Source: an uncultured Gammaproteobacteria bacterium
GTDB taxonomy: Bacteria; Patescibacteriota; Patescibacteriia; Magasanikbacterales; GWA2-37-8
Length of the DNA stretch: 64,000 nt
Assembly (NCBI GenBank): GCA_964355175.1
Contig: CAYHBZ010000001.1
Span: 368,523 to 432,522, forward strand
Direction of reading: 5' to 3'
Part shown: positions 8,427-31,098 of the stretch, one piece after another
Position numbering within the stretch: the first letter of the stretch is position 1
How the letters are laid out: each line of letters begins with the position of its first letter
Translations under genes and position numbers: made by a program
Notes under the pieces: model-generated
Told to the model about the DNA's origin: nothing
The model's input: only the letters and a program-made list of their open reading frames with translations
Databases searched by the model: none

Positions 8427-8440
8427 TTAATATATTAATT

Positions 8441-8498: not shown

Positions 8499-8508
8499 AT
8501 TCGTTCAT

Positions 8509-8814: not shown

Positions 8815-8836
8815 ACTATGAAATTAAAATATTAAT

Positions 8837-10386: not shown

Positions 10387-10392
10387 ATAATT

Positions 10393-15056: not shown

Positions 15057-15077
15057 ATGACTGTTCTAAGAACTAAA

Positions 15078-15177
15078 GCCTGGACAAATTACTTTTGAGC
15101 GGGTTATGAGGCCCACGGCCGATTCCTAGATCCCGACTTAGTCGGGAGAGGAAAGCGAAAAAGTCATTTGTCCAGGC
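15078..15177. repeat. 100-bp palindromic element in the MBL-methyltransferase spacer
   Basis: 12-bp terminal inverted repeats GCCTGGACAAAT / ATTTGTCCAGGC enclose a perfect 7-bp-stem hairpin TCCCGAC-tta-GTCGGGA. It carries GATTCC/GTCAT motifs reminiscent of the GTCATTCC repeat family. Confidence 0.45.
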
Positions 15178-15190
15178 GTCTATTTCCAAG

Positions 15191-15796
15191 CTATTTTCTT
15201 GCAATAATGAGTTGATTAATCCAAATATCTTTTTCGTAAACTAAGACATTTTTTTCTACCTGGAAGGCTAAACTTTCTAGTTCTTCAACAATTTTTTCTG
15301 GACGATGATAAAAAGATTCAATTTTTATTTTTCCTTCTTGGGTCTGCACTTCCGGTGGTTCTTTTTGATTGATATTGGAAACCGCCAAAATTCCTCCGTC
15401 TTTTAATACCCTGCAAGCTTCATCAAAAAAAGTTTTTGGATCTCTCAGATGCACTATCAAAAATGCAGCGGTAACAATATCAAAAGTACTGTCAGCAAAC
15501 GGCAAATTTTCGGCATCACCAATAGTGGTTTCAATTTTTTTATCTTTATTTTTCAAAACTTTCAACATCTGCTCCGACACATCCAAAGCTGTCACTTGCG
15601 CTCCCGACTTGGACAATAGCACCGATAGCCGACCTGTCCCCGCTCCCACATCAAGCACTTTTTTACTTTTTAAATCGCCTAAAAGCGGCAAAAATTTATT
15701 TTGTTCAAAACTATTTAAATACTTTTCTTTTTTATCGTATGAAGCCGCGGCCAAATCATAGCCCGGAGCGGATTTTAAAATTTTTATTTTTGACAT
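15191..15796 (-). CDS. class I SAM-dependent methyltransferase (Methyltransf_11-like)
   Basis: Motif I VLDVGAGTGRLS, and a post-I acidic residue. 201 aa. Overlaps the 3' end of the ComEC gene by 41 nt. Confidence 0.75.
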   Translation of the reverse strand: MSKIKILKSAPGYDLAAASYDKKEKYLNSFEQNKFLPLLGDLKSKKVLDVGAGTGRLSVLLSKSGAQVTALDVSEQMLKVLKNKDKKIETTIGDAENLPFADSTFDIVTAAFLIVHLRDPKTFFDEACRVLKDGGILAVSNINQKEPPEVQTQEGKIKIESFYHRPEKIVEELESLAFQVEKNVLVYEKDIWINQLIIARK

Positions 15797-17279
15797 ATAT
15801 AACTAATAAAACATAGGTAACCACCAATGCCCAAAGCGGCAGGGCAAACTCCACACTCGCCCACGGCCAGGAGGCCAAATAATGCGCGGTTATTATAACA
15901 TACTTTAAACCAAAATAAGTAGGGAAAGCCATTAACAAGCCCAATGGAAAAAATATATAGCTGAGCAGAATGGATAAAAAAGAAAACAACATCAAAAAAG
16001 GCACGATCCACAAAATTAAGATATTGGCCAGCGGAGCTATCAGTGATAGCTGACCAAACTGAAATAAAATTAAAGGCAAAGTGGCAATAATGGCCGACAA
16101 AGTAGTGGATAATGATTCCAATATAATATACAAAAATTTATTATCGGTTTCTATTCCAAAGTTATTTAAAATTGGCGAGATATATATCAGGCCTAGGGTG
16201 GACAAAAATGACAGCTGAAAACCGGCATCCCAAATTAACACAAACGGATTCATAAGCATCATCACCGCGGCGGTAAATACCAAAACATTTCCCACTCGCG
16301 ATTGTCGGCCTAGCTGAGTGGCCAACAAAACAATAATACCCATAATCCCCGCTCTCACTACCGAAGCGGAAGCGCCGGTAAAAAATACAAACAAAATTAT
16401 TCCACCTATTACCACAAAAAATGCTTTGCGTCGATCTAGGCTCAGCCGGATCAAAATATTCATCAGCACGCAGGCAATGATACTAATATTATATCCAGAA
16501 ACCGCCACGATGTGAGTGAGACCAACTCGACTAAAATCCTCGGTCACTTCCGGCGTAAATCCTGACCGCGCGCCGTATAGTAATCCGGCGGCCAAAGAAC
16601 TTTGCGGTTCCGACCATAATTCATTGACCCGATACTGCAATCTCTGCTTTAGATCAAAAAAATTTATATATAATTTATGTAACACGGGCATATCAGTTTC
16701 CAATTTTTCTATCCGGACGCGCGTACCGCATAGCGACCACACCCCGTTGCGCGCCAAATATTTATCATAATTTAAAAAACCATCTTTCCCCTCAGGTGTT
16801 TTCAAATCACAGCCCACTCTCACCGCATCACCAAATTTAAAATCCTCATAAAGCGGTAAATTTATCAACACACCGCCGGAAACTTTTTTTGCTCCCAGCT
16901 GGGTGACATTTACAATCGCCTGCTTGCTGGATATTTTTTCATTTATCTCCTGCGATATAGTACCGGTGAAAATTTCATACTGACCGTTATAATAACTCAG
17001 CTCATTCATTGTGACGGACGGCACGGCCAGATAAAAACGCAACCCGCCCAAGATAAAAAACAACGCACACAACAAAACAAAACGAAATTTTAAATTCGCC
17101 CAATAAAAAAATAATAAAATAACCACCGACAAAAAACCGCAGTAAATAAAAAACTGCCAATCTTTATTGATAGTTTGAGACGAAAAAATTCCTACTCCCA
17201 AAATAAAACAAAAACAGAACGCCAAAAATGTTCTGCTTCTAGAATAATAAATTTTTTCTTCCCCTCCTAACATATACAC
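15756..17279 (-). CDS. comEC: ComEC/Rec2 DNA-uptake channel protein (DUF4131 + competence domain), lacking the MBL domain
   Basis: 507 aa polytopic membrane protein with ComEC competence-domain sequence (…GLTHIVAVSGYNISII…). The start codon overlaps the response-regulator stop by 1 nt. Confidence 0.75.
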   Translation of the reverse strand: MYMLGGEEKIYYSRSRTFLAFCFCFILGVGIFSSQTINKDWQFFIYCGFLSVVILLFFYWANLKFRFVLLCALFFILGGLRFYLAVPSVTMNELSYYNGQYEIFTGTISQEINEKISSKQAIVNVTQLGAKKVSGGVLINLPLYEDFKFGDAVRVGCDLKTPEGKDGFLNYDKYLARNGVWSLCGTRVRIEKLETDMPVLHKLYINFFDLKQRLQYRVNELWSEPQSSLAAGLLYGARSGFTPEVTEDFSRVGLTHIVAVSGYNISIIACVLMNILIRLSLDRRKAFFVVIGGIILFVFFTGASASVVRAGIMGIIVLLATQLGRQSRVGNVLVFTAAVMMLMNPFVLIWDAGFQLSFLSTLGLIYISPILNNFGIETDNKFLYIILESLSTTLSAIIATLPLILFQFGQLSLIAPLANILILWIVPFLMLFSFLSILLSYIFFPLGLLMAFPTYFGLKYVIITAHYLASWPWASVEFALPLWALVVTYVLLVIYVKNKNFKIRSGL

Positions 17280-17656
17280 TAACTGCCGAGTTTGGCTTTA
17301 ATTTTGGCTACTATGGAAGAAAGATTATGATTGGTTTTGATGAGATAGTCATAATTACCGTGCTTAATCAATTTCAGAATTTCATGATCATCATTTATAT
17401 TACTAAGCACGATTACCGGCACGTTCTTGCCCCACTTATTTTTGTGCAGGGCGTTGAGCACCTCCGTACCGTTCATTTTTGGCATAAATATATCAAGCAG
17501 AATCAAATCTGGCTTCTCTTCTAAGGCCATTTTCAATCCGTCTTCCCCGTTGGCGGCTTGCAATACAGTGAATTTTTCACGGGTCAATTTATCGGCCAAA
17601 ATTTTACGCGTCGCGATTTCATTTTCAATAATTAAAATTTTTTTATTGTCTATCAT
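17279..17656 (-). CDS. response regulator, stand-alone receiver (CheY-like) domain
   Basis: 125 aa, …ILIIENEIATRKIL…DLILLDIFMPKMNGTEVL…. 4-nt overlap with the kinase gene. Confidence 0.8.
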   Translation of the reverse strand: MIDNKKILIIENEIATRKILADKLTREKFTVLQAANGEDGLKMALEEKPDLILLDIFMPKMNGTEVLNALHKNKWGKNVPVIVLSNINDDHEILKLIKHGNYDYLIKTNHNLSSIVAKIKAKLGS

Positions 17657-18885
17657 ATAATGATAGTTTTCTTTTTAATCACCGGTTTAATTGGAAAAGA
17701 TACAAAAAAAGTAGTGCCTTTGTCCACCTCGGACTCAAACCAGATTTTGCCTTGTAATTTTTCTACTATTGATTTCACCATATACAAACCCAGACCAGTA
17801 CCGGTAATTTCTTTGGCCATCACATTTTCCGCGCGATATAGTTTGGTAAAAATTTTCTCTTGAGAGGCTTTGGGAATACCGTAACCATTGTCGGCCACAC
17901 TCAGAGTAAATTCCTTTTTACCGCTTGGAATTACTTTGATATCAACTTTTCCTCCCGACGGGGTATATTTTATAGCGTTGGTTATAAGATTTTGCAATAA
18001 CATCTTGAGCATTTTGATATCGGTTTCTACACCTTTTAGTCCATCACTGACTGTAGAATTAATTATCATCTTTTTATCTTCAATCGTCGGCAAGTTGGCT
18101 TTTAATTCATCTTCTATGAAACTTTTTAAATCCACCGGTACCAACTGTACCGCCAAAGTACCCAAATCCAAACGAGAAACATTCAACAAATCATTGACCA
18201 TTTCTACCATGCGCTGATTACCCTGATAAACTTCTTTAAGATAATTTTTCTGATCTTCATTAATAGGACCAGCATCACCGGACATCAACATTTCCACATA
18301 CCAATTGATGGTGGACAGCGGCGTACGCAATTGATGAGAAGCTAAAAATACAAATTCGCTTTTTATTCTGTCAATTTCTTTTTCCTGAGTAATATCACGA
18401 AAAACTTCTATCGCGCCGATGATTTCGTCTTTCAAAAAGATTGGCATCGCGCTGATATATACCGCGAAATCCATTTTGTCTTTTTTTACAAAATGATAAT
18501 TGGTGCTAATAATTTTTTTACGCTTGGTGAGACACAGATGCAGAGGATGCTTTTCTATTGGCACATGTTTACCGGTTTCATCTGACAACAGTGAAATATC
18601 GCCCAATCTTTGACCAATCATACTATCGTCCCAGGCAATCATTTCCTGCGCGGCTTTATTTACAAAAATAATCGCTCCGTTTTTATCCGTAGCCACTACC
18701 CCATCGCCAATACTACCAAGCATAGCCTCTTCACGCGCTTTGTCTATTTTAGCGATTAATTCTTTTTTCTTTAATTCTTTAAGCAACGCGCGTGAGCGTC
18801 GGCCAAAATAAAAATATAAGGCTAAAATCAAAACTATAAATAGCCATTCTATAAACATCATTGAATTTACAGTGGTGAAAAACAT
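17653..18885 (-). CDS. sensor histidine kinase (TM - PAS - HisKA - HATPase_c)
   Basis: H-box FLASHQLRTPLSTI. PAS-like GDGVVATDKNGAIIFVNKAA. ATPase G-boxes GTGLGLYMV. Confidence 0.85.
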   Translation of the reverse strand: MFFTTVNSMMFIEWLFIVLILALYFYFGRRSRALLKELKKKELIAKIDKAREEAMLGSIGDGVVATDKNGAIIFVNKAAQEMIAWDDSMIGQRLGDISLLSDETGKHVPIEKHPLHLCLTKRKKIISTNYHFVKKDKMDFAVYISAMPIFLKDEIIGAIEVFRDITQEKEIDRIKSEFVFLASHQLRTPLSTINWYVEMLMSGDAGPINEDQKNYLKEVYQGNQRMVEMVNDLLNVSRLDLGTLAVQLVPVDLKSFIEDELKANLPTIEDKKMIINSTVSDGLKGVETDIKMLKMLLQNLITNAIKYTPSGGKVDIKVIPSGKKEFTLSVADNGYGIPKASQEKIFTKLYRAENVMAKEITGTGLGLYMVKSIVEKLQGKIWFESEVDKGTTFFVSFPIKPVIKKKTIII

Positions 18886-18891
18886 AATTTT

Positions 18892-20520
18892 TTATCTGGT
18901 AATACTAATTGCTTCAGCGTTTTCCGCACTACAAGCCTGAACATTTATTCTACCACCGGCTGTTTTTTGAATGGCGTAATATGTCTGGCTGTTACTGCCA
19001 GTTTTAGGATCAAACGGTAGAGAGGTGATATAAGTCGGAGCTAGCGCGGACGAAAGATCCAAACAAGCGGCGGCAGTGGTGGATGATGGAGAAGATCCGC
19101 CGCTTGAACCACTAGTACTCCCACTAATTATAGCACTTTTTAGCTCAGGAGTTAAGGCGGAATCGACGGTGTCTAGAAATGCTTTGTATTGGAAATATCG
19201 ATTATTAGAAATATTGGCGAGGGATACTGATGGAGTCGAATTGGAAGTATTGGAAGCTTCAGAATAATAGGTGTTGGCAGTGCCATCAGGACCAAAAAAT
19301 GTACCGTCAGAACAGTTGGCTTGAGCGCAGGATCTTGCTTGATATTTCAAACTAAGGGCGCCGCGTTTATACATATCACTAACTTCTGTGACAGAAAGAG
19401 CGCGAGAAAATACTGCTACCTCATCAATTAAACCTTGAAAAAAACGATTACTACTGTAGGTCGATCCAATTCTAGGATTGTGTAAAATTATATTATAATT
19501 ATTCGAAGTGGTTTCAGATTCTTTGACACCGTTTACATACACTGTAGCTTTACTGGTAGCATTATTTAAAGTATAAACTAAATGATACCACTGATTGAGA
19601 CTAACAGCCGTAGTAGAAAATACAAACGCACCGTTATTTAAAGCACACTGGACCAAATTGCTAGTATTATTTAATTGACAATGTAAATCACCGCCTGCCC
19701 AACCTTGGCTACCAAACAAACCGCGCATTTCACCTGATACTCCAGTGGATTTAAACCACATGGCAACAGAAAAATTAGTAAAATTACTATTATTTAAAGG
19801 AATTCCAATAAAATCTCCCGACCCGTCAAAACTTCCGCCGGTTCCAAACTTTGCACTGGCCGCCATAGCAGGACAACCATTGCCGCTACAGGTACCATTA
19901 TTATTGTTTCCGGAATTGTCGACAAAACTAGTCGCACCGCTGCTTTCGTCCAAATGCATCAATAAGACATTGCCATTCATACTCACATTCCCCGTTGGAT
20001 AGCCGGTCTCTGCAGCACCGCTGTTTGACAAGGCTTTACCTGTCGGCCTATTTGGCACCCAGGCAAGCGTGGACCAAGCGGCGCTGGCAGCAGCATCTTT
20101 AATGTCTGAGGTATAGGAACCACCAGTCTGTCCAACCGAAAGATTTAATAAAGAATTATTTGTGTTGTAAGTAGTATTACTATATGTACCGGCGAAAGTT
20201 GATTGACTATTATCAGTCATGGATACAGGACCGCCACTGCTGGTAGCACTACTGCCACCACAAACAACATCACATCCGGAATTGGCAGTGCCCAGCATTC
20301 TGAGATTGGTGTCGATGTTATTCGGAAACAAACCATCATTATCGAGAGAGTACTGATAAATAGCATTCAATATAGTACTGAGATCGCTTTTTCTGGCGGC
20401 GTTTCTCACTTGTGCCAATTGTTTTCCAGGATTAATGGCAACAATAACTATGCCGGCTAATATCGCAATAGCGGCTACGACTAACAGAATTTCTAATAAT
20501 GTAAAAGCTTTTTTATTCAC
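18892..20520 (-). CDS. type IV pilin-like protein with central LamG_3 (concanavalin-A-like) domain, paralog 1
   Basis: Class III signal peptide and conserved pilin helix (KKAFTLLEILLVVAAIAILAGIVIVAINP). Central region with the LamG_3 signature (…NQWYHLVYT…YVNGV…GLIDEVAVFSRALSVTEV). C-terminal module shared with the other paralogs. Confidence 0.75.
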   Translation of the reverse strand: MNKKAFTLLEILLVVAAIAILAGIVIVAINPGKQLAQVRNAARKSDLSTILNAIYQYSLDNDGLFPNNIDTNLRMLGTANSGCDVVCGGSSATSSGGPVSMTDNSQSTFAGTYSNTTYNTNNSLLNLSVGQTGGSYTSDIKDAAASAAWSTLAWVPNRPTGKALSNSGAAETGYPTGNVSMNGNVLLMHLDESSGATSFVDNSGNNNNGTCSGNGCPAMAASAKFGTGGSFDGSGDFIGIPLNNSNFTNFSVAMWFKSTGVSGEMRGLFGSQGWAGGDLHCQLNNTSNLVQCALNNGAFVFSTTAVSLNQWYHLVYTLNNATSKATVYVNGVKESETTSNNYNIILHNPRIGSTYSSNRFFQGLIDEVAVFSRALSVTEVSDMYKRGALSLKYQARSCAQANCSDGTFFGPDGTANTYYSEASNTSNSTPSVSLANISNNRYFQYKAFLDTVDSALTPELKSAIISGSTSGSSGGSSPSSTTAAACLDLSSALAPTYITSLPFDPKTGSNSQTYYAIQKTAGGRINVQACSAENAEAISITR

Positions 20521-20528
20521 ACAAAAAA

Positions 20529-22172
20529 TTATTTTGTTACAGTTATTGCTTCTCCGTTTTCAGGAGAACACGACTGCACATTAATACGACCGGCGGCGGT
20601 TTTTTTCACAGCGTAATAAGTTTTGGCACTATCGCCCACCTTTGGATCAAACGGAATAGAAGTGATATAGGTTGGCGCCAGCGCGGAAGAAATATCCAAA
20701 CAAGCGGCCGCTGTAGACGACGAAGCACCCACACTGCCTTGCACCACAGTCTGCGTACCGGCCAGATCCACACTCTTTAATTCCGGCGTCATTGATGTAG
20801 CAGGAGAATCAAAAAAAGTTTTATACTGAAAATATTGATTACTACCAATATTACTAAGTGATAAGGACGGAGTGGAAATAGATGTATTACTACTTTCTGA
20901 ATAATAAGTATTGACTGTATTGTCCGGACCAATAAATGTACCGTCTGAACAATTGGCTTGAGCGCAGCTTCGGACTTGGTATTTCAATGATAGGGCGCCG
21001 CGTTTGTACATATCAGTTACTTCTGTAGCTGACATAGAACGATTAAAAATAATTGCCTCATCCACCAAGCCATTATATTGGCCAAATCCCAACTGAATTG
21101 GGGTAGTGTTATTCCTAATACTAGTAAAGGCAAAATTCTTTGTAGACAACAAAACTCCGTTTAAATAAATTTTTCCTACACCATTATCAAAAGTAAAAAT
21201 TATATGTTGCCAGGCATTATCACCTATCCAAGTACCGTCCTGATATTCATAAGTAGTGCCAGCTGGATTAACTAAAAATACTCGCCAATAAACATTGCCG
21301 CTAATAGAGAAAGATCCATTACTAGGATTAAAACCAGCACCTTTTCCAATAATATGTCCGTAGCTTGGCCAACTGCTGGTAGCCACACTATTAAACCAAG
21401 CACCGAATGTAAGTTGATTAGAAAAAGTTAAGCTGGTACTATTTGGAACTGTTATTGGATTAGTACCGGCTTTAAAATTAGCGGCATTACCGAACTTACC
21501 AGATATCATGCTTGGACAGTTTGGATTAACACAATTTCCATTATTATTTTTACCTGAAGTATCTAAAAAAGCGGTGGCACCACTGCTTTCATCTAAATGC
21601 AATAATAATAAATTACCGCTCATATTGGCATTACCGGTGGGATAACCAGTTTCGGCAGCACTATTATTTGGCAAGGACTTTCCTGTAGGACGATTTGGCA
21701 CCCACGCCAAGGTCGTCCAACTAGTGACACCGGCTGAATCTTTTATGTTTGAAGTATATGTACCGGAAGTCTTATTAACCGAAAGGCTCAGCAAACTTGT
21801 ACCATTATTATAATTAGTGTTGGAAAATGTTCCGGAAAAAGTGGATTGGCTATTGTCGGTAATAGCGACTGGCACGGTTTGAGAAGTAGAACTACCGGCT
21901 ACTGGACCACAACTCACTCCACATCCTGATCCACTGGTACCAAGCATTCTCAAATTGGTATCGATAGATCCAGGAAAGGCCCCACTATTATCGAGCGAAT
22001 ACTGATAGATGGAATTTAAAATAGCACTAGCGTCTGATTGCCTAGCGGCATTCCTAGAGGCCGCTAATTGCTTACCTGGATTTATGGCAACAATCACAAT
22101 ACCAGCCAACACCGCAATTGCGGCCACGACTAAAAGAATTTCTAATAATGTAAACCCAGAATTTTTTTTCAT
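20529..22172 (-). CDS. type IV pilin-like protein with LamG_3 domain, paralog 2
   Basis: GFTLLEILLVVAAIAVLAGIVIVAINP N-terminus. Divergent LamG-like middle. Conserved C-terminal ~130 aa. Confidence 0.75.
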   Translation of the reverse strand: MKKNSGFTLLEILLVVAAIAVLAGIVIVAINPGKQLAASRNAARQSDASAILNSIYQYSLDNSGAFPGSIDTNLRMLGTSGSGCGVSCGPVAGSSTSQTVPVAITDNSQSTFSGTFSNTNYNNGTSLLSLSVNKTSGTYTSNIKDSAGVTSWTTLAWVPNRPTGKSLPNNSAAETGYPTGNANMSGNLLLLHLDESSGATAFLDTSGKNNNGNCVNPNCPSMISGKFGNAANFKAGTNPITVPNSTSLTFSNQLTFGAWFNSVATSSWPSYGHIIGKGAGFNPSNGSFSISGNVYWRVFLVNPAGTTYEYQDGTWIGDNAWQHIIFTFDNGVGKIYLNGVLLSTKNFAFTSIRNNTTPIQLGFGQYNGLVDEAIIFNRSMSATEVTDMYKRGALSLKYQVRSCAQANCSDGTFIGPDNTVNTYYSESSNTSISTPSLSLSNIGSNQYFQYKTFFDSPATSMTPELKSVDLAGTQTVVQGSVGASSSTAAACLDISSALAPTYITSIPFDPKVGDSAKTYYAVKKTAAGRINVQSCSPENGEAITVTK

Positions 22173-22175
22173 CTT

Positions 22176-23810
22176 CTATTTTGTTAGACTAATGGCCTCG
22201 CCATTCTCCACTGAACAAGCTTGAACATTTATTCTACCGCCAGCTGTTTTTTTTGCAGCATAATATGTTTGGCTGTTGCTACCGGTTTTGGGATCAAATG
22301 GCAGGGATGTAATATAGGTTGGTGCAAGAGCTGACGAAAGATCTAAACAAGCGGCTGCGGTGGTGGATGAAGATCCTCCGCCAGAACCACTAGTACTCCC
22401 ACTAATTACAGCACTTTTTAGCTCAGGAGTTAAGGCAGAATCAGTGGTGTCTAGAAATGCTTTGTATTGGAAATATCGATTGTTGGAAATATTGGTGAGA
22501 GATAGTGATGGAGTGGCGTTGGAAGTGTTGGAAGCTTCGGAATAATAGGTGTTGGTAGTGCCATCAGGACCAAAAAATGTACCGTCAGAACAGTTGGCTT
22601 GAGCGCAGGATCTAGTTTGAAATTTTAGACTTAGAACACCGCGTTTGTAAATGTCTGAGATTTCTGTGGCGGATAGGGATCGGTTGAAGACAGACGCTTC
22701 ATCGATGGTGCCGGTAAAATTATATGCCAAAACACCTGATTCCCCACCACTAAAATCCGTTCCGATATGGGCTACCGCGTTATTAATTCTAGGTTGACCG
22801 GTCTGAGAAGAACTGCCATCCAACACCCCGTTAATATAATATTTTACTGTTGCGCCATCCCAGGTAGCACTAATTAAAGACCATTGATTTAAATTTACTG
22901 CTCCGGTTCCAATATTGGCCGCTCCACCTACCCACAGTTGTATTCTACCGGTATTATTATACAACCCAAACCAATAGGCGGTGGCATGAGCTTTGGCTAT
23001 TACTGTATGATAGGTATGATCAGAAAAAGATGTTGGATAAATCCAAGCACTCCATGTGCCTTGACCCACATCCAAACTATTACTGTCAGCAACATTTAAA
23101 TAGGTGTTATTAAAATTACCAGCTGTACCAAATTTTCCAATTTGACCCATCGTAGGACAGGCGTTACCACTACAAGTCGCATTATTACCACTCCCCGAAC
23201 TATCGGAAAATGTAGTTGCTCCAAGAGCTTCGTTCAAATGTAGAAGTAAAACATTGCCGTTCATATTGATATTGCCGGCTGGATAACCACTTTCAGTAGC
23301 GCTATTATTTGGCAAGGCTTTGTTGGTAGGACGATTTGGGGTCCAAGCAAGAGAAGACCAAGTCGCGCTAGCAGTAGTGTCTTTAATGTCTGAGGTATAG
23401 GTGCCTGAGGTTTGGGACGAAGAAAGGTTTATTAAACTAGTATTGGTGTTGTAAATGGTGTTGGCATATATACCAGCAAAGGTTGATTGGCTATTGTCGG
23501 TGATGGTGAGAGTGTTACCACTCGAGGAACTACTGCTTGCCCCACCGCAGGATACATTACAACCGGAGGCGGCGGTGCCAATCATTTTTAGATTAGTATC
23601 TATATTATTTGGAAATTGTCCATTGTTATCCAAAGAATATTGATAAATTGAATTTAAAATTGCACTAACATCTGATCTTCTAGCAGTGTTCCTGGTAGCC
23701 GCCAGCTGTCTGGCCGGATTTATTGCCACAATCACAATACCGGCCAACACCGCGATCGCGGCCACGACCAAAAGAATTTCTAATAATGTAAAAGCTTTTG
23801 CTTTTTTCAT
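22176..23810 (-). CDS. type IV pilin-like protein with LamG_3 domain, paralog 3
   Basis: KAFTLLEILLVVAAIAVLAGIVIVAINP N-terminus. Divergent middle. C-terminus ~90% identical to paralogs 1 and 5. Confidence 0.75.
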   Translation of the reverse strand: MKKAKAFTLLEILLVVAAIAVLAGIVIVAINPARQLAATRNTARRSDVSAILNSIYQYSLDNNGQFPNNIDTNLKMIGTAASGCNVSCGGASSSSSSGNTLTITDNSQSTFAGIYANTIYNTNTSLINLSSSQTSGTYTSDIKDTTASATWSSLAWTPNRPTNKALPNNSATESGYPAGNINMNGNVLLLHLNEALGATTFSDSSGSGNNATCSGNACPTMGQIGKFGTAGNFNNTYLNVADSNSLDVGQGTWSAWIYPTSFSDHTYHTVIAKAHATAYWFGLYNNTGRIQLWVGGAANIGTGAVNLNQWSLISATWDGATVKYYINGVLDGSSSQTGQPRINNAVAHIGTDFSGGESGVLAYNFTGTIDEASVFNRSLSATEISDIYKRGVLSLKFQTRSCAQANCSDGTFFGPDGTTNTYYSEASNTSNATPSLSLTNISNNRYFQYKAFLDTTDSALTPELKSAVISGSTSGSGGGSSSTTAAACLDLSSALAPTYITSLPFDPKTGSNSQTYYAAKKTAGGRINVQACSVENGEAISLTK

Positions 23811-23821
23811 TATTTTTTTTA

Positions 23822-24268
23822 TTATCTAGTAACACTGATAGATGCGCTATTTTCGGCAGATGGAGCGCTGACAGTAATGCGTCCATTGGCAGTCTGTAAA
23901 ATTTTATAACCGGTACCATTGGTACTGGCGGCGGTTGGATCGGTTGGAATAGCCGTCAAATAAACTTCGTTTAAAGTAAGTGCGGACAAATCCACTAGGC
24001 CAGCACAACTACCACCGGTCTTACAAACTTCTACCGCGTTCTGAGTAATACCAGATGGCAATGCGCCTTTATTATCAATTGAATATTGATAAACAGCGTT
24101 TAAAATCGTGTTCACATTTACTCTTCTTTGCGCGTTACGAGTATCGGCCAATTGTTTGCCTGGATTGATAGCAATAATTACGATACCGGCCAAAATGGCG
24201 ATAGCGGCCACCACCAATAAAATTTCTAAAAGGGTAAAACCCTTTTTATTTAAATTTTCCATATTCAT
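23822..24268 (-). CDS. short type IV pilin (148 aa) lacking the LamG insert
   Basis: KKGFTLLEILLVVAAIAILAGIVIIAINP prepilin N-terminus. Its C-terminal beta-domain (…TANGRITVSAPSAENSASISVTR) is homologous to the C-terminal module of the large paralogs. Confidence 0.75.
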   Translation of the reverse strand: MNMENLNKKGFTLLEILLVVAAIAILAGIVIIAINPGKQLADTRNAQRRVNVNTILNAVYQYSIDNKGALPSGITQNAVEVCKTGGSCAGLVDLSALTLNEVYLTAIPTDPTAASTNGTGYKILQTANGRITVSAPSAENSASISVTR

Positions 24269-24310
24269 ATTATGAATAATTAATAAATTAATTTTTTAAA
24301 TTAGATATAT

Positions 24311-25996
24311 TTATCTTGTCACACTTATAACTTCAGAATTTTCCGCGCTACAGGCCTGAACATTTATTCTGCCACCAGCGGTCTTTTGAATGGCATAATA
24401 TGTCTGGCTGTTACTACCAGTTTTGGGATCAAATGGTAATGAAGTGATATAAGTTGGAGTCAATGCCGAAGAAAGATTCAAACAAGCGGCAGCGGTGGTG
24501 GACGAAGAAGATCCTCCACTAGAACCACTGGTACTCCCGCTAATTATAACACTTTTTAACTCCGGAGTTAAGGCGGAATCGACGGTATCTAGAAATCCTT
24601 TATATTGGAAATATCGATTATTGGAAATATTAGCGAGAGACAGTGACGGAATAGTATTGGAGGTGTTGGAAGCTTCGGAATAATAGGTATTGGCAGTGCC
24701 GTCGGGGCCGGCGAATGTACCGTCGGAGCAGTTGGCTTGGACACAACTGCGGACTTGGTATTTTAGACTAAGGGCGCCGCGTTTGTAATGGTCGGCAACT
24801 TCGGTTGCAGAAAGGGCGCGGTTATAAAGAGCAAATTCATCCAATGTACCACTAAAAAAATAATTTGTTCCGGCTCCGCGGTCGCCAAAATAAATTGGCT
24901 GATTACCAAAATTATTGGTATTATTGGCATTCAGACCACTGTTTGTGCCGGTAGTTTTTGATCCATTTATATAGGTAGAGACTTCGTTGGTTGGCAAACT
25001 TTTATCAAACACTACCACCACATGATACCAAACATTGGTCTGTAAAATATTATCAGCCACCCAAACAGAATAATACACATTGCCTCGTACGCCGGCTCCA
25101 ATTTTACCGTTAGGATTGATCGATACAACGTAACCATCGGAAACATTATTATAATTTGTAGAAGCTTCAAAAATTTGTTCACCGACAGCTGGTGTCAAGG
25201 AAGCAGGTTTAAACCAAAAAGATACCGATATTTTGTTGGTAGCCGAGACATCTACCGGACCAGTCTTGGCATAGTCATCTACCCCATCAAACTTTACACC
25301 TGTGCCAAAAATTCCACTTGATTGATAAGTTAATCCATTAAAAGTAGCGGCATTATTACCACTGCCAGATAAATCTTGCCAAGCTCCGCTCGCTTCATCC
25401 AGGTGATACAAAAGTACATCCCCACTCATGTTAGCATTCCCACTTGGATAACCGGTTTCAGTGGCACCAGAGTTTGGCAATGGTTTATTGGTAGGACGAT
25501 TTGGTATCCAAGCCAATGTAGACCAAGTGGCACTGGCGGTGGCGTCTTTAATGTCTGAAGTATACGTACCAGGGGTTTGGTTGGCAGAGAGATTTAAGAG
25601 ATTATTATTTGTATTGTAAGTGGTGTTGCTGTAAGTACCGGCAAAAGTGGATTGACTATTATCGGTAATGGATACAGGACCACCACTGCTGGTGGCACTA
25701 CTGGCACCACAAGAAACATTACAACCGGAATTTGATGTACCGAGCATCCTTAGGTTAGTATCGATGGTGTTTGGGACCAACCCAGTATTATCTATCGCGT
25801 ATTGATAAATTGCGTTTAAAATTGCGCTCACATCACTACGACGAGCAGCATTTCTTGTTTGGGCTAATTGTTTGGCCGGATTTATTGCAACCACAACTAT
25901 ACCGGCTAAAATGGCAATAGCGGCCACTACCAGAAGAATTTCTAGCAAAGTGAAACCAGTTTTAATTTTATAACATTTATGCTCCATAATTACCAA
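24311..25996 (-). CDS. type IV pilin-like protein with LamG_3 domain, paralog 4 (561 aa)
   Basis: TGFTLLEILLVVAAIAILAGIVVVAINP N-terminus. LamG-like middle (…FDGVDDY…WYHVVVVFD…YINGS…). Conserved C-terminus. Confidence 0.75.
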   Translation of the reverse strand: MVIMEHKCYKIKTGFTLLEILLVVAAIAILAGIVVVAINPAKQLAQTRNAARRSDVSAILNAIYQYAIDNTGLVPNTIDTNLRMLGTSNSGCNVSCGASSATSSGGPVSITDNSQSTFAGTYSNTTYNTNNNLLNLSANQTPGTYTSDIKDATASATWSTLAWIPNRPTNKPLPNSGATETGYPSGNANMSGDVLLYHLDEASGAWQDLSGSGNNAATFNGLTYQSSGIFGTGVKFDGVDDYAKTGPVDVSATNKISVSFWFKPASLTPAVGEQIFEASTNYNNVSDGYVVSINPNGKIGAGVRGNVYYSVWVADNILQTNVWYHVVVVFDKSLPTNEVSTYINGSKTTGTNSGLNANNTNNFGNQPIYFGDRGAGTNYFFSGTLDEFALYNRALSATEVADHYKRGALSLKYQVRSCVQANCSDGTFAGPDGTANTYYSEASNTSNTIPSLSLANISNNRYFQYKGFLDTVDSALTPELKSVIISGSTSGSSGGSSSSTTAAACLNLSSALTPTYITSLPFDPKTGSNSQTYYAIQKTAGGRINVQACSAENSEVISVTR

Positions 25997-26025
25997 ATAT
26001 TATAACACACTTTTGGACCATAAAA

Positions 26026-26442
26026 TTAAAAATTTGAAACTTCCTGCCAAGAATCCACTACTATGACCGGCGCAATCTGACTCACAGATACTTTTACCTT
26101 ACGAACTACCGATCCAATAGTAGCGCTAGATTGGATCACGCGACTTTGTTCTGAATTTATTATAATTTCATAACTACAGGTATCGCCGTCAATCTGTACA
26201 CTCCCTGCTCCGTTAATTATGGAGCAAAGTTGAACATGGTTGAGCGCCGATTCTGCGCAAGCATTAGCCAAAGTTTTGGCACGCGCGGACTGCTCAAGCA
26301 AAAAACTATTTTGATAGGAATATAGACCGGACAAAATCAAATACAAGGCCACGGCCACACCAAAAGCACCGACGATTAATACGCCGATAAGTACCGCGAA
26401 TCCGGAATTATTTTTTGTACTAGCGGATATTGGCAGTCGCAT
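26026..26442 (-). CDS. pilus-associated small membrane protein (minor-pilin-like / PilX-like)
   Basis: N-terminal hydrophobic segment after NNSGFAVLIGVLIVGA. Lacks the E5. Sits in the minor pilin block. Confidence 0.4.
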   Translation of the reverse strand: MRLPISASTKNNSGFAVLIGVLIVGAFGVAVALYLILSGLYSYQNSFLLEQSARAKTLANACAESALNHVQLCSIINGAGSVQIDGDTCSYEIIINSEQSRVIQSSATIGSVVRKVKVSVSQIAPVIVVDSWQEVSNF

Positions 26443-27004
26443 AAAAAGTTTGGGTATAGCTATATTGATTTAGCCCAGATGAATTTTTATAATTTAGATC
26501 AAATTGAATTTTAATGGAATCGTGAGAGGCAGCTCCTAAATTTTTTACCTGCCAGTTGGAAATTTGAATCTTGGAGGGATTTAAAAAATAATCTTTACTA
26601 TTTTTATTCAAAAATAAAGTGGTGCTGACTACGCTGAGCTGTTCAGACTGGCCATTGATATCCTGAAACTGCAATACGACGGCGGTATTGCCTACGGCCG
26701 GAGCCGTAATAATTTTCGCGTTATTAATCTCTTGGGTAATAATCTGAATAATCTGGGCACCTTGTTGCTCTACCATACTCATACTCTGATTTTTTACGCG
26801 TGATTGAATAAGCAGAGCCACCAAAGCCACAATGGACAACAAAATAACACTGGCTACAAAAACATACAGTAGTAACTCCAGCAATGTAAATCCTTGATTG
26901 TCATTTTGAATGCTCTGCATAAATATTTTATGGACAAAACTCCGTGCTGGTACCGGTACTGGTAGCAGTACGCCAATCAGTAAATAAAGTGGAAAAAGAT
27001 ACAT
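26420..27004 (-). CDS. prepilin-type N-terminal cleavage/methylation domain protein (minor pilin)
   Basis: QGFTLLELLLYVFVASVILLSIVAL class III signal peptide. Confidence 0.6.
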   Translation of the reverse strand: MYLFPLYLLIGVLLPVPVPARSFVHKIFMQSIQNDNQGFTLLELLLYVFVASVILLSIVALVALLIQSRVKNQSMSMVEQQGAQIIQIITQEINNAKIITAPAVGNTAVVLQFQDINGQSEQLSVVSTTLFLNKNSKDYFLNPSKIQISNWQVKNLGAASHDSIKIQFDLNYKNSSGLNQYSYTQTFYATANIR

Positions 27005-27386
27005 TAATAGTATTGGAACCGGTTTGCTTCCATTCTACTTGAGATGTTACTTTTTTTATTTGAGAATTCACATCGGCAATACTAATAGTGCGCTTAAAAA
27101 TATCCGTGACATCCGGCTGAGCCGCCAGTGTCCACTGACCACTACTTGCCAGACCAAAATTCCCTGGTGTTAAATTCGCAAAATTATGATCACGAATACT
27201 GCGCGCCGCTTCGAGCCCTTCCTGAGCCAGCGAAATAGCATGGTTTCTTTGTCCGGCACGGATGGTACTTTGCTGACCATAAGTCAAAATACCCAAAAAA
27301 ATCAAAGACAACAACGCTAGAAGTCCGCTGGCCAGGACTATTTCCACCAGAGAAAAACCTTGATAATTTTTTATATTTTTTATCAT
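26928..27386 (-). CDS. prepilin-type minor pilin
   Basis: QGFSLVEIVLASGLLALLSL class III signal peptide. Confidence 0.6.
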   Translation of the reverse strand: MIKNIKNYQGFSLVEIVLASGLLALLSLIFLGILTYGQQSTIRAGQRNHAISLAQEGLEAARSIRDHNFANLTPGNFGLASSGQWTLAAQPDVTDIFKRTISIADVNSQIKKVTSQVEWKQTGSNTINVSFSTLFTDWRTATSTGTSTEFCP

Positions 27387-27865
27387 AGGCCAATAATACC
27401 AAGTTCGCTAACAGAAACATTCTTTTTACGACCATCCTGGTGAGTTATAATTATAGTACCAGACGAGGTAGTCCATCCGAAAAATTTACTAAACACGACT
27501 TCATTTAAACCGGATAATTTTATAGTGGCGGTCATTTTATAATTTTCATCAAAATTTTGATCGCGTCCGGCAAAGTTATTTCCTTTAAAAAGAGTAGCCG
27601 TACTACTCACCATCTCCACTCCCCAATCAGAATCCCCATCCACGGCCTGGGCGCGAATTTGTCCGCGATGCAAAACATCCGATACGGTAGTAGCCGCAAT
27701 TGACACCTCATTCTCTGCCTGCAAAGACAGATACATAGGAGCGGCAATGCCCGCCAATAGGCTTATCAAAGCCACTGATAACAATAATTCCAAAAGTGTA
27801 AAGCCATTTTTTTGTGAAAATGGCTTTGGAGCATATATGATTTTTTTTACCAAAAAAAATTTCAT
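27383..27865 (-). CDS. prepilin-type minor pilin (GspH/FimT-like)
   Basis: NGFTLLELLLSVALISLLAGIAAPMY class III signal peptide. Confidence 0.6.
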   Translation of the reverse strand: MKFFLVKKIIYAPKPFSQKNGFTLLELLLSVALISLLAGIAAPMYLSLQAENEVSIAATTVSDVLHRGQIRAQAVDGDSDWGVEMVSSTATLFKGNNFAGRDQNFDENYKMTATIKLSGLNEVVFSKFFGWTTSSGTIIITHQDGRKKNVSVSELGIIGL

Positions 27866-27866: not shown

Positions 27867-29435
27867 TTACGGACTAAGAGTAGAGCCGGTTTTTACATAT
27901 TGAGCACTGACCCACCCAAATTGATCCGGGCCTAAAATTATTTGATACCAACCGTCTTGTCGCTGTAAAAATTTAAATTGTTCGCCTACCAGTGCTTTGC
28001 GTATAAGCTCAGATTTAGAGGAAGAAGCCATGCGAATATTTACATATCCCAAAGAAGTGGAAGCCACCTCAAGCATATCCGGACCAAGCAAACTAACTTC
28101 GGGTGGAGGTAACATCGGAGAAGGGACGGTGGAACTGGTCGATACTGATGTACTGGAAACTGTGCTAGTAGGAGCTCCTTTAGGTCCAATAATTATTACT
28201 GAGCTGGTAGACATGGTGCTAGTGCTAATAATGGCACCAGCAACTACCGGAGACACAGCGCTAACCGGAGCAGACTGGGAAGAAGAACCGGACTGGCTAG
28301 GACCCTCATCATTTTTATTACTCAAACCACCCACCAAGCTATATATTGGCAAAATTACTGCCAAGGCTACTGCCACCACACCAAGCCAAACTATCACGAG
28401 CAACAAAGGCTCCAAAATGACGCTGAGATTTTTGGTTGTTAATTCGGTTTTAGCTTCAAAAGTTTCGCTAATATTTATAAATATTTTGGAAAGCGCACCC
28501 GATCTCTCGCCCGCCCCGATTAAACTCTGAATCGGAGTAGGGATATATTTTTTTATTTTTTTGTTGGAAGCAAAACTTTGTTCAAAAGACTTTCCCTCTT
28601 CTATCTGATCGTGCAAATAATTATAAATTTTCCCGTAAGACCTCAAGGTGCTGGAATCTTTTAGGGATGACAGAGCTTGCAACACGGGCAAACCAGAATT
28701 TAGCAATGTGCCCATGATATATCCAAATCTGGCCAACTCCGCTTCGCGGATTAAATTTTTGATACCGGGAATTAAAAACAGTAGCCACTGACCGATGAAT
28801 TTGGTTTTGGAAAAAACAAATAAAAAATATAGTATTAAACACAAACCAACCAAAAAAGACGGTACAACTATTGCTCCATATTCAGACAAAAAGGCACCAA
28901 AGCTCATCAACAGCCTGGTGACCAAAGGTAATTTGAGATTCAGCTGACCAAAAACACTGGCCAGGCGCGGCAAAATAAACCAAGCAATACCAATACCCAC
29001 CACCATCGCTATGGCCATCACAAATACCGGATACATCATGGCGGCGCGAATTTTGGATTGAAATGATCGGCTCTTGGATTGTTGCGTCACCACGACAGCC
29101 AAACTCTCATGCAATCTACCACTGTCTTCACCGATCTTAACTAGTGCAATAATATGGGCCGGTAAAATTTCAGTTTTACCAAGCGCGATAGACAGGCTAA
29201 AACCAGCACTGATATCTTCTACCAAATTATCAATGATATTTAGTAACTTGGTAGATTTTACTTCGGTTTTTATCGCTTGCAAGGACTCAATAATATCCAT
29301 GCCGGAAGCCAAAAGCATGGCCAAATTTTCAATAAAATATTCTTTTTCTTCATTAAAACCAAAACTAAAAGCCAGAATTGATGGTTTTTTAGGTTTCTCA
29401 TCTTTTTGATTGTCTATTTTTTTATCCTCGCTCAT
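27867..29435 (-). CDS. pilC: type IV pilus platform protein PilC/GspF fused to a C-terminal S/T/P-rich linker and SH3b-like domain
   Basis: Two T2SSF repeats with three TM helices. After the last TM comes a ~90-aa Ser/Thr/Pro low-complexity tract, then GYVNIRMASSSKSELIRKALVGEQFKFLQRQDGWYQIILGPDQFGWVSAQYV, which matches the bacterial SH3 pattern. Confidence 0.85.
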   Translation of the reverse strand: MSEDKKIDNQKDEKPKKPSILAFSFGFNEEKEYFIENLAMLLASGMDIIESLQAIKTEVKSTKLLNIIDNLVEDISAGFSLSIALGKTEILPAHIIALVKIGEDSGRLHESLAVVVTQQSKSRSFQSKIRAAMMYPVFVMAIAMVVGIGIAWFILPRLASVFGQLNLKLPLVTRLLMSFGAFLSEYGAIVVPSFLVGLCLILYFLFVFSKTKFIGQWLLFLIPGIKNLIREAELARFGYIMGTLLNSGLPVLQALSSLKDSSTLRSYGKIYNYLHDQIEEGKSFEQSFASNKKIKKYIPTPIQSLIGAGERSGALSKIFINISETFEAKTELTTKNLSVILEPLLLVIVWLGVVAVALAVILPIYSLVGGLSNKNDEGPSQSGSSSQSAPVSAVSPVVAGAIISTSTMSTSSVIIIGPKGAPTSTVSSTSVSTSSTVPSPMLPPPEVSLLGPDMLEVASTSLGYVNIRMASSSKSELIRKALVGEQFKFLQRQDGWYQIILGPDQFGWVSAQYVKTGSTLSP

Positions 29436-29445: not shown

Positions 29446-31098
29446 TTAAAATTTTGGCGCCTCCGCTACACGCAATAATTCTTCCAGAGTAGTAACACCA
29501 CTTTTTACTTTATCAATACCATCTTCAAATAAAGTGACTGAACCTTGCGCGCGGGCCACTTTCCAAATCTGGGCGGTGGAAGGATTTTTCAAAATAAGTT
29601 CCTCTAGCTCGGGAGTGACTTCAATAAATTCATAAATAGCAGTACGCCCCTTAAAACCGGTATGACCACAGCTGTCACATCCTTTTCCTTGATAGAGCAC
29701 GATATGTTTTCCGGTAAAATATTTAGAAGCATCTTCGGAAATATTTTTCTTGATTTCTTCCTTGGATGAGTTCACGCTATAGCGACATTTATCACAAATC
29801 TTGCGCACCAAACGCTGAGCAATAAGTACCTCAAGAGTAGAGGCCAATAAAAATGGCTCAATACCCATATCCAACAAACGCGGCACCGCCGTAGCGGCAT
29901 CATTGGCGTGAAAGGTAGACAATAATAAATGTCCGGTCAAAGCCGCGTTCACCGCAGTCTCGGCCGTTTCCTGATCACGAATTTCACCTACCAAAATAAT
30001 ATCCGGATCCTGACGCACAATCGAGCGCAAACCTTTGGCAAAAGTAAGATTTGTCTGGGCATTTACCTGGATCTGATTGATGCCCGGCATTTTATATTCT
30101 ACCGGATCTTCAATGGTGGTAATATTTACATCCGGACTATTTAATAATTTTAGCAAAGCGTAGAGCGAAGTAGTTTTACCGGAACCGGTCGGACCGGTCA
30201 CCAGAATCATACCAAACGGTTTGTTGGAAGCGGTGAGCAATAATTTTTGATCATGTTCAGACAAACCCAAATCAGCAAAAGAAAAACTGCGTACATATTG
30301 AGACAACAAACGAATTACCACCTTTTCACCATTTAAGGTAGGCAAAATGGAAATACGCATATCAAGCGAATTATCCCCTTTTACCTGACGAATAGCGCCG
30401 TCTTGCGCGGAAAAATGCTCATCAATAGGCAACATAGCCTGCACTTTAATACGATTCAAAATATTTCCATAGTATTCTTTTGGAATACGACCAGCTTCTT
30501 GCATTACACCATCAATACGAAAACGGACAATTACTTCTTTGTCCTGAGGCTCAATATGAATATCGGACGCGCGATAAGCCGAAGCATCGTCTACAATCTG
30601 CTCAATAATCTCCGGCGCGATGCGTTTTTGTTGTTTGATAATATCGCCAAAACGAGTGGCTAGAGTTTTGAGATAATGAATAAAGGTCGCTTCAACATCT
30701 TCGGCAAAAGCAAAGGCCAAAGATATTTTTTTACCTTTAAAAATTGTTTTTAATTTTTTGGTTAATTCAGGATTGGTGGGATTATCGGTCGCGATAATTA
30801 AGTCATCGCCATTTTGTTGAAATACTACGGCTGTAAATTCTTTGGCCGTGTCTTCCGGTAATAACTTCACCTGCTCAGCCGAAGGCTGATTGGTAGTCAG
30901 ATTGGCGTAGCTTATTTTATCGGATTCAGCAATGGCTTGACCCAACAAATCTTTATTGATAATTTCCTGCGACAATAAATAATCCAAAAATTTACCTTCC
31001 TCCCCTTTGGTGGCGGCCTCCGCTTTTTTGACATCCTCATCGGTTATATAATTACCATCCAGCAAAACTTGTTTTATTTTTTTGTCTTCAATTTTCAT
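29446..31098 (-). CDS. pilB: type IV pilus assembly ATPase PilB/GspE
   Basis: Walker A GPTGSGKTT. Asp/His boxes. Tetracysteine motif CDKC…CDSCGHTG. 550 aa. Confidence 0.9.
   Translation of the reverse strand: MKIEDKKIKQVLLDGNYITDEDVKKAEAATKGEEGKFLDYLLSQEIINKDLLGQAIAESDKISYANLTTNQPSAEQVKLLPEDTAKEFTAVVFQQNGDDLIIATDNPTNPELTKKLKTIFKGKKISLAFAFAEDVEATFIHYLKTLATRFGDIIKQQKRIAPEIIEQIVDDASAYRASDIHIEPQDKEVIVRFRIDGVMQEAGRIPKEYYGNILNRIKVQAMLPIDEHFSAQDGAIRQVKGDNSLDMRISILPTLNGEKVVIRLLSQYVRSFSFADLGLSEHDQKLLLTASNKPFGMILVTGPTGSGKTTSLYALLKLLNSPDVNITTIEDPVEYKMPGINQIQVNAQTNLTFAKGLRSIVRQDPDIILVGEIRDQETAETAVNAALTGHLLLSTFHANDAATAVPRLLDMGIEPFLLASTLEVLIAQRLVRKICDKCRYSVNSSKEEIKKNISEDASKYFTGKHIVLYQGKGCDSCGHTGFKGRTAIYEFIEVTPELEELILKNPSTAQIWKVARAQGSVTLFEDGIDKVKSGVTTLEELLRVAEAPKF

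Follow-up and report, generated by a model that had tools for sequence, protein, structure and literature searches.

Variable exposed domains held between ends that are constrained by assembly are a familiar theme in bacterial filaments, known from both flagellin and pilins. The flagellin FliC combines conserved termini with a hypervariable, recombining central domain, and the pilE/pilS system of Neisseria has one expression locus, silent truncated cassettes, a G-quadruplex (G4) element and minicassettes. Here we describe a tandem array of five type IV pilin genes (18892-25987, minus strand) in a 64-kb stretch of DNA from contig CAYHBZ010000001.1 (hereafter the window, to which all coordinates refer unless a locus is named). 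Four of the genes encode long pilins into which a module with a LamG/concanavalin-A-like domain is nested, and the fifth encodes a short pilin. With moderate confidence, we read the array as the pilin block of a Magasanikbacteria-like pilus operon of the Candidate Phyla Radiation (CPR), in which the short pilin would be the major subunit and the four others modular lectin pilins, their repertoire evolving by recombination.

The domain combination itself is already catalogued. The survey of modular pilins by Raynaud et al. (2021, PMC8179133) lists IPR012902-PF13385 more often than any other architecture (229 proteins, Dataset S1), and the first representative in its Fig. 8 comes from Candidatus Magasanikbacteria, the same lineage as named homologues of the window genes. 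The latter share with the catalogued proteins the IPR012902 motif and a non-pilus domain (N_methyl plus PF13385). In the survey, however, the module is grafted at the end of the pilin by a short loop, whereas in the window it is nested between two linkers; the catalogue lists architectures only and is silent on nested topology, tandem arrays, hypervariable cores and recombination. The lectin module of PilC from Streptococcus sanguinis binds sialylated glycans and glycosaminoglycans (PMC9934059). In its structures (PDB 7oa7/7oa8) this module is C-terminal and follows a small, distorted pilin module, while that of the window genes is nested, sits on an additional constant stalk and is followed by about 60 amino acids (aa) of pilin beta-domain. 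PilC is moreover a single gene, as opposed to four paralogs with different LamG cores, and sequence identity between the two is only 10-11%. An extra domain inside the pilin beta-sheet, not appended to it, is known from GspK (the alpha-domain), but both GspK and ComZ (with a beta-solenoid module) are single tip minor pilins with non-lectin inserts and no variation across tandem paralogs, and GspK lacks Glu5 (PMC8179133). Within the CPR, lectin-like minor pilins have been implicated in host binding by Saccharibacteria (PMC11623550), where PilX1 and PilX2 of Nanosynbacter lyticus TM7x are pilus proteins predicted to be lectin-like and proposed to bind host cell-wall glycans. These belong to a different CPR phylum and carry C-terminal L-type and PLL-type domains, with no tandem variable array reported. 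Nothing specific on LamG pilins in CPR was found in the literature.

As far as the literature found goes, what is new here is the nested topology, the unannotated conserved stalk, the tandem arrays of one to four long pilins, the more than 40 LamG types and the mosaic evolution. Host recognition and attachment by ultrasmall CPR bacteria are largely unknown, and type IV pili are leading candidates for both. The locus offers candidate specificity determinants, with four lectin-type heads on one pilus scaffold and a LamG type that differs between close genomes. It extends the modular-pilin concept to a module nested on a conserved stalk and to variable tandem arrays evolving by recombination; it provides no evidence of a novel molecular mechanism for programmed variation.

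Gene array and anatomy of the long pilins

The genes are lettered E, D, C, B and A in the order of transcription:

24311-25987, minus strand: gene E, long modular pilin of 558 aa, identical to database protein P0007 (PF13385, E = 5e-26)
23822-24268, minus strand: gene D, short pilin of 148 aa without insertion (N_methyl and TIGR02532 matches)
22176-23810, minus strand: gene C, long modular pilin of 544 aa (open reading frame, PF13385)
20529-22172, minus strand: gene B, long modular pilin of 547 aa (open reading frame, PF13385)
18892-20520, minus strand: gene A, long modular pilin of 542 aa with a GTG start, identical to P0001; the paralog used for modelling

For gene E, the list of open reading frames (ORFs) gives a TTG start at 25996 and the database gene call an ATG at 25987. 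Among the pilin genes it comes first behind the minor-pilin set, and its LamG type is its own. The best sub-threshold family for gene D is a GspG-like major pseudopilin. All five genes lie on the same strand with 3-42 nucleotides (nt) between them, and neither a convincing terminator nor an invertible element was found between the pilin genes. The tandem array of five minus-strand ORFs noticed in the first-pass annotation, which had only the DNA and its ORFs to go by, is thus real, with the short gene in second place.

When D is aligned to A by BLASTP, residues 6-77 match A 1-72 (72% identity) and residues 89-148 match A 484-542 (48%). Since D aligns to A only outside the intervening stretch, a long pilin amounts to a D-like pilin with an insertion of about 400 aa. 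D had previously been taken for the complete N- and C-terminal modules without the LamG part; this does not hold, because the same alignment places about 200 aa of those supposedly constant modules inside the insertion. The insertions are as follows:

19078-20256, minus strand: whole insertion in A (aa 89-481), made up of a Gly/Ser linker, N2, LamG (aa 185-387), C1 and a second Gly/Ser linker
20715-21905, minus strand: equivalent of the insertion in B
22362-23543, minus strand: equivalent of the insertion in C
24497-25705, minus strand: equivalent of the insertion in E

An AlphaFold2 model of A, built on 96 homologues, has a predicted local distance difference test (pLDDT) score of 92.9 and a predicted template modelling (pTM) score of 0.73. 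It shows the long alpha-1 helix (8-60) and the C-terminal antiparallel beta-sheet (strands 515-519, 525-529 and 539-541) of a pilin, and a beta-rich insertion; the pLDDT drops below 50 only at 91-93 and 474-476, within the Gly/Ser-rich linkers. N2 (about 94-184) and C1 (about 388-473) are conserved and beta-rich, and have no match in Pfam (E up to 1) or in a PDB profile search. Their secondary structure and co-conservation suggest that the two together form one stalk carrying LamG. E, C, B and A would accordingly be complete D-like pilins with a module inserted through two flexible Gly/Ser linkers, this module consisting of a conserved beta-rich stalk (N2 and C1) that bears a LamG/concanavalin-A-like lectin domain. 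Between the long paralogs, the flanks are about 60-97% identical at the aa level in most 30-column blocks (down to about 50% in part of the 3' module for pairs with B), and the centre 0-45%, which agrees with the initial description of constant ends around a divergent centre. The C-terminal pilin beta-domain is 64-92% identical between paralogs and 48% identical to that of D.

The assignment of the middle domain to LamG was also confirmed. Laminin_G_3 (PF13385) scores 65.4-92.1 bits in four of four long genes against a gathering cut-off of 27.6, a family profile matches LamG domains in the PDB with E-values of up to 4e-21 over positions 194-398, and the predicted fold is the jelly-roll beta-sandwich of LamG/concanavalin-A-like domains. 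The divergence, which had been attributed to the whole middle of about 200 aa, is confined to a hypervariable core of about 130 aa; the first strands of LamG, its last strand and its helix are conserved. The cores, delimited by motifs at their borders, are:

19441-19836, minus strand: hypervariable LamG core of A (aa 229-360)
21078-21482, minus strand: LamG core of B
22719-23120, minus strand: LamG core of C
24857-25297, minus strand: LamG core of E

The best sequence and fold matches of the LamG domain are domain 4 of AbnA, CBM40, the HCN domain of clostridial neurotoxins, pentraxins and PilC. A lectin or adhesin role is the natural reading, and ligand binding is predicted. Four LamG domains with different cores would provide the pilus with a repertoire of ligand specificities, probably for glycans, which could serve attachment to host cells or substrates. 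Alternatively, the domains could be catalytic, of the concanavalin-A-like glucanase type, and the pilus could deliver glycan degradation to the host wall. We regard this as very unlikely, as all the top matches listed above are non-catalytic binding domains and no glycoside-hydrolase family came over any threshold in the Pfam scan. The last 90 or so residues of LamG in A and E have a weak, sub-threshold match to the NCBIfam 'TafC family fimbrial protein' (23-31 bits, cut-off 410).

The class III prepilin signal initially assigned to the four long paralogs stands as well, and the short gene has it too. A G/FTLLEILLVVAAIA prepilin motif (G/F-T-L-L-E, with Phe at +1 and Glu at +5) follows a short basic leader in five of five, and Glu5 is kept in all copies from A to E. 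TIGR02532 scores 20.6-27.7 bits in A, D and E, the three that were scanned, with a cut-off of 16.3, and Pfam N_methyl gives 17-27 bits, at or near its threshold of 21.2. Profile matches to the N-terminal regions of PilA, PilE1 and GspG were also obtained. By these features all five are type IV pilins, predicted to be cleaved, N-methylated and polymerised.

Relatives and recombination over time

The family set consists of about 100 full-length homologues (530-580 aa), all of them metagenomic, of which 96 were used for clustering the LamG domains. The best non-self match to A among 5.8 billion proteins is 69% identical. A scan of genome contigs with the family alignment, which relied on the N-terminal pilin motif only and returned mostly generic pilins, gave a single full-length relative (L007, Magasanikiibacteriota, 40% identity). 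The syntenic relatives have one to four long pilins (L) around a single short pilin (S), in the following arrangements:

L089 and L093: L S
L001: L S L
L004: L S L L
ERZ1426829 contig: L L S L
L003: L L L S L
window: L S L L L

Gene D is single-copy and 85-93% conserved in the syntenic loci. More distant relatives of the operon, found in a metagenome scan anchored on the fourth minor pilin, carry only one to four short pilins after that gene; the same scan yielded no additional close strains. As the distant relatives carry short pilins only, the insertion-bearing pilins are a clade-specific elaboration, and the universal subunit is the short pilin, which is probably also the major one.

The closest genome, L004, is 96% identical in PilB and 94-96% identical in the minor pilins at the aa level, and has no positional counterpart of gene C. 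The long pilins (W_E and W_A being window genes E and A, and L4_n and L1_n pilin genes n of L004 and L001) were compared over five segments, namely the pilin N-terminal part, N2, LamG, C1 and the pilin C-terminal part. For W_E and L4_1 the identities are 94, 81, 28, 80 and 86%, and for W_A and L4_3 they are 92, 73, 35, 88 and 78%. The B-type genes are consistently related across genomes (LamG 68-81% identical): the LamG of gene B is 68-71% identical to those of L4_2 and L1_2, similar to its flanks, with a ratio of non-synonymous to synonymous rates (dN/dS, omega) of about 0.1 throughout. Gene B is thus a member of a stable orthologue group, in which LamG is conserved from genome to genome.

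The ancestry of gene E changes along its length. A collinear block of 6.1 kb shared with L004 (88.6% nt identity) ends within it at 25395, about 100 nt before the variable core, and similarity restarts in blastn at 24857, the other border of the core. Its 5' 375 nt are about 95% identical to gene 1 of L004, and its 3' end is closest to A and C. Among informative sites in the first 375 nt, W_E shares 70 with L4_1 and 8 with its paralog W_A, against 20 and 57, respectively, in the last 410 nt (Fisher p = 1e-16). The operon of L004 is mosaic as well. Its part between the response regulator and the 5' end of the first long pilin is similar to the window (minor pilins 94-96% at the aa level), and its part between the short pilin and the metallo-beta-lactamase gene is similar to L001 (89-94%, vs 75-89% to the window), with the crossover region within the first long pilin gene.

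Across the family, the 96 homologues fall into 46 LamG clusters at 50% identity or more, and where the flanks of a pair are 80-90% identical, the median LamG identity is 31%. The opposite also occurs: C and P0062 share 69% identity in LamG on flanks that are only 47-49% identical, and LamG domains of the C type recur in P0062 and P0069 on flanks only 44-49% identical. The histories of flanks and LamG are therefore decoupled, which demonstrates recombination with breakpoints in the conserved parts. Judging by these sequences, recombination at conserved flanks has shaped the family, and its diversity arises over evolutionary time. Candidates for the process behind each case are unequal crossing-over in the arrays, gene conversion and exchange between lineages. 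The repertoire would then result from duplication and loss of tandem genes, from unequal crossing-over and from recombination between lineages, with breakpoints in the conserved parts.

This resembles FliC, in that assembly ends under strong purifying selection flank an exposed, divergent middle that is exchanged between lineages. It differs from it in the filament and the fold, in that the variants of the window stand side by side in one operon and in that the variable part is a lectin fold.

Two members of the family lie outside a pilus operon. P0069, with a C-type LamG, is a solitary LamG pilin in L088 (2399-4012 of that contig), which also has TrwB/VirD4-like and DUF87 ATPase genes (8694-11183). 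P0004 in L005 is likewise solitary.

Proposed homology arms and active switching

The initial annotation had also proposed that the 3' ends are nearly identical in DNA, and that the shared flanks act as homology arms for shuffling the lectin-like cassette, making the array a candidate system of antigenic variation. Under such a programme, frequent intragenomic conversion through the flanks would move LamG cassettes between copies, as between pilE and pilS in Neisseria, and so alter which adhesin a lineage exposes. Both systems have pilin genes with conserved and variable segments and some gene conversion between copies. The arms were assessed by nt identity, by the rate of synonymous substitution (dS) and by the same-codon fraction, that is, identical codons at identical residues, for which the expectation was taken from genome codon usage.

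In the 5' flanks, nt identity is 61-78% in most blocks, reaching 87% in one block of the A-E pair; the same-codon fraction is 0.41-0.51 where 0.41-0.43 is expected, dS reaches at least 1.7 or is saturated, with an omega of about 0.1. With synonymous sites at the chance level set by codon usage, the 5' flank is conserved as protein and not as DNA. Exact matches on the 5' side do not exceed 27 nt. The 3' part of A, C and E is different, as a tract of about 300 nt in module C1 is homogenised:

19111-19392, minus strand: homogenised C1 tract of A
22395-22670, minus strand: homogenised C1 tract of C
24530-24808, minus strand: homogenised C1 tract of E
19279-19335, minus strand: copy in A of a 57-nt exact repeat, the longest identity in the array (exact-match search)
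22557-22613, minus strand: copy in C of the same repeat

Here nt identity is 81-93%, dS is 0.37 for A-C and 0.87-1.02 for A-E and C-E, and the same-codon fraction, at 0.65-0.83, exceeds the expected 0.44 (Fisher p = 2e-7, 0.016 and 0.012 for the tract vs the 5' flank in the pairs of A, C and E). Over the last 160 nt or so of the same genes, identity drops to 71-84%. In A-C the longest exact matches measure 57, 36, 27 and 27 nt; no other pair exceeds 26 nt. In gene B, the 3' nt identity is 52-76% throughout, and synonymous sites are at chance in both arms. The near-identity described for the 3' ends is therefore overstated, as high identity is limited to the C1 tract of A, C and E, excluding their last 160 nt and all of B, and the homology-arm idea holds only in part. 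In the 5' arm, whichever pair is taken, and in any pair that includes B, nt identity is no higher than protein conservation would give, which had been named beforehand as a refutation of shuffling; in the C1 tract of A, C and E it is higher. The flanks and the B-type LamG are under purifying selection (omega about 0.1); for the LamG cores, dN/dS is uninterpretable, with synonymous sites saturated.

Three spurious antisense ORFs had been cited along with the 3' ends:

19076-19267, plus strand: antisense ORF within gene A (ORF list)
22360-22545, plus strand: antisense ORF within gene C (ORF list)
24495-24683, plus strand: antisense ORF within gene E (ORF list)

These were found exactly where reported, all three at a distance of 184 nt from the stop codon of their gene (its low-coordinate end). 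They fall in the conserved constant part on the 3' side (C1 and the second linker) and are by-products of the conserved sense frame.

Other signs of a switching device were not found. There are no silent, truncated or promoterless donor cassettes, as none of the four long genes lacks its start codon or signal peptide, and every copy is intact, tightly packed on one strand and to all appearances expressed. No G4 motif and no tandem or homopolymer (slippery) tract occurs between 18 and 27 kb, and neither RVT_1 nor bAvd matched any of about 60 large ORFs scanned in the window. The array is hence unlike Neisseria in lacking silent truncated cassettes, a G4 element and a 5' arm at the DNA level, so that the identity on both sides of the variable part that marks variation of the pilE/pilS type is missing; and its variable unit is not a minicassette but a whole domain core, with 10-35% identity between variants. 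The strain was also assembled independently from two other samples (L087 and L172), both times 100% identical to the window and collinear with it, and no chimeric full-length variant was found among the 5.8 billion proteins.

A single chimeric contig was recovered, from another sample (L171, ENA ERZ4201065, 3.3 kb, positions 1-3333, 3x coverage). It runs from the LamG core of A to the 3' end of C, then through B to the 5' end of A; both parts match the window at 100% identity, with the switch located precisely within the 57-nt repeat. It is either the product of an unequal crossover or a mis-join of short reads at low coverage, which are indistinguishable here; a mis-join is at least as likely, because coverage is only 3x and the repeat barely exceeds typical k-mers of short-read assembly. 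The comparison of strains for reshuffled cassettes thus yielded two identical assemblies and one ambiguous join.

Programmed antigenic variation would draw on the homogenised C1 tract, the repeat common to A and C, the junction of L171 at that repeat and the mosaic family. Set against these are the chance-level 5' arm in all pairs and both arms of B, the short exact matches on the 5' side, the lack of silent donors, G4 motifs and slippery repeats, the two identical assemblies, the absence of a near-identical chimeric protein from the database and the doubtful status of L171. We consider it a decidedly improbable explanation, and the claim of active shuffling by conversion between the tandem copies was not upheld. 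In a further reading, co-expressed lectin pilins with interchangeable LamG cores would decorate one type IV pilus as a combinatorial recognition system of a single CPR clade and decide which host envelopes the episymbiont can attach to. LamG types would be re-assorted between genes and lineages, by unequal crossing-over and gene conversion at the conserved stalk and pilin segments, fast enough for host switching, with L171 a real recombinant. We consider this conceivable but doubtful. The genes have the look of alternative adhesive heads diversified by recombination over evolutionary time, and not of a programmed antigen-switching device; patchy gene conversion would contribute too, as seen in the C1 tract of A, C and E.

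A diversity-generating retroelement (DGR) was also considered for the LamG pilins and rejected, as no reverse transcriptase was found among the scanned ORFs of the window and the DGR found beside P0004 targets another gene. That element (7218-9728 of L005, JGI 3300027835; the same in L006) comprises bAvd (8315-8689), a reverse transcriptase (8727-9728), a template repeat (8176-8297) and a variable region (7679-7800), with 16 of 16 mismatches at template adenines. Its target is a 194-aa gene (7218-7802), not the pilin P0004.

Pilus operon and probable place of the long pilins in the filament

The pilin genes are encoded beside an assembly ATPase, a platform protein and minor pilins, and a cluster on the same strand follows them:

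31105-31488, minus strand: response regulator, upstream (Response_reg)
29446-31098, minus strand: assembly ATPase PilB (T2SSE/MshEN)
27867-29435, minus strand: platform protein PilC with a C-terminal SH3 domain (T2SSF)
27383-27865, 26928-27386, 26420-26920 and 26026-26442, minus strand: four minor pilins in H-I-J-K-like order (N_methyl matches)
25999-26007, minus strand: extended -10 promoter-like element TGTTATAAT, 11 nt upstream of the gene E ATG
17653-18885, minus strand: PAS histidine kinase
17279-17656, minus strand: response regulator
15756-17279, minus strand: ComEC

The minor pilins have weak similarities to GspH, XpsI/PilV (GspI) and ComGF, and the set is kept in all syntenic loci. 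The fourth (138 aa) has the sequence GFAVLIGV and lacks Glu5, as in K-type tip subunits; it matches nothing in Pfam or NCBIfam yet is 48-96% conserved, and served as the anchor for finding related operons. The four most likely constitute a priming or tip complex of the H-I-J-K type, and D would most likely be the major filament subunit. The PilC of the window has a Ser/Thr/Pro-rich low-complexity region of about 100 aa as well as the bacterial SH3 domain at its C-terminus, and both are kept in all syntenic loci.

Downstream, the histidine kinase, response regulator and ComEC genes are tightly packed on the same strand with conserved synteny, and are likely co-transcribed; genes for a methyltransferase and a metallo-beta-lactamase protein come next. 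Within 14193-17279 (minus strand), a class I methyltransferase gene separates the gene for the channel part of ComEC (DUF4131 and Competence) from that for the metallo-beta-lactamase protein, an arrangement kept in L001 and L004. TGnTATAAT is present at the same position in L001, L003, L004 and L089, and in 17 of the 42 loci surveyed, which suggests a separate strong promoter for the pilin block. The 42-nt AT-rich spacer at 24269-24310 (minus strand), 5' of gene D and reading …AATTAATTTATTAATTATTCATAAT directly before the ATG, is nearly identical in L001 and L004 and similar in L003, despite diverged adjoining coding DNA; it may be a regulatory element. The original description of the host as a small-genome bacterium with a type IV pilus was right, since the source contig is 953,736 bp (a CPR genome of about 0.95 Mb), the named homologues come from CPR lineages (Candidatus Magasanikbacteria, Falkowbacteria and Peribacteria), and a pilus operon surrounds the pilins.

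As the long pilins retain the signal, Glu5, the alpha-1 helix and the C-terminal beta-domain, they would be incorporated into a D-based pilus primed by the four minor pilins and present four different lectin heads. The glycan binding of the S. sanguinis PilC module (PMC9934059), the frequency of PF13385 among catalogued modular pilins (PMC8179133) and the lectin-like minor pilins of Saccharibacteria (PMC11623550) support this reading. Several points weigh against this interpretation. Incorporation is deduced from retained pilin features only, and a 40-kDa insertion is perhaps sterically tolerated only at low density or at the tip. The evidence for N2 and C1 packing as one stalk is limited to their secondary structure and co-conservation, ligand-binding residues were not identified, and proteins are also among the ligands of LamG domains. 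Since ComEC adjoins, DNA uptake may be the main role of the pilus. The scanned ORFs of the window include no prepilin peptidase, PilM/N/O or PilT.

In the archaeal bindosome, sugar-binding proteins carry prepilin signals. On this model the long proteins would use the class III signal for export and anchoring and form a surface lectin or substrate-capture layer outside any filament. The steric awkwardness of a 40-kDa insertion in a filament body, the habit of CPR cells of scavenging from hosts and the solitary homologues outside pilus operons (P0004 and P0069) fit such a layer. We nevertheless find it improbable, given the retained C-terminal pilin beta-domain, Glu5 in all copies, the conserved position between the minor pilins and the short pilin, and a flexible double linker that looks designed for a module projecting from an assembled pilin.

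Another arrangement is one in which each long pilin is the alternative major subunit of its own thick, lectin-coated homopolymeric pilus, with D forming a separate thin one. Every feature of a polymerising pilin is indeed kept in the long pilins, a long pilin gene stands first behind the conserved extended -10 element, and Saccharibacteria assemble two distinct pili (PMC11623550). On the other hand, the operon has a single PilB/PilC set, the modular pilins PilB and PilC of S. sanguinis are minor and tip-located (PMC8179133, PMC9934059), and relatives manage with short pilins alone, which makes this arrangement unlikely compared with a D-based pilus carrying the long pilins as modular subunits.

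Other features of the window

The remainder of the window holds housekeeping genes; recA was not seen in it. DsbA-like thioredoxin, RadA/Sms and RecG-like helicase genes lie at 60413-63994, the first bearing on disulfide-bonded pilins and the others on recombination capacity. At 2015-6520 (minus strand), a protein of 1501 aa with a transglutaminase-like core and a match to LGFP repeats is probably another large surface protein.

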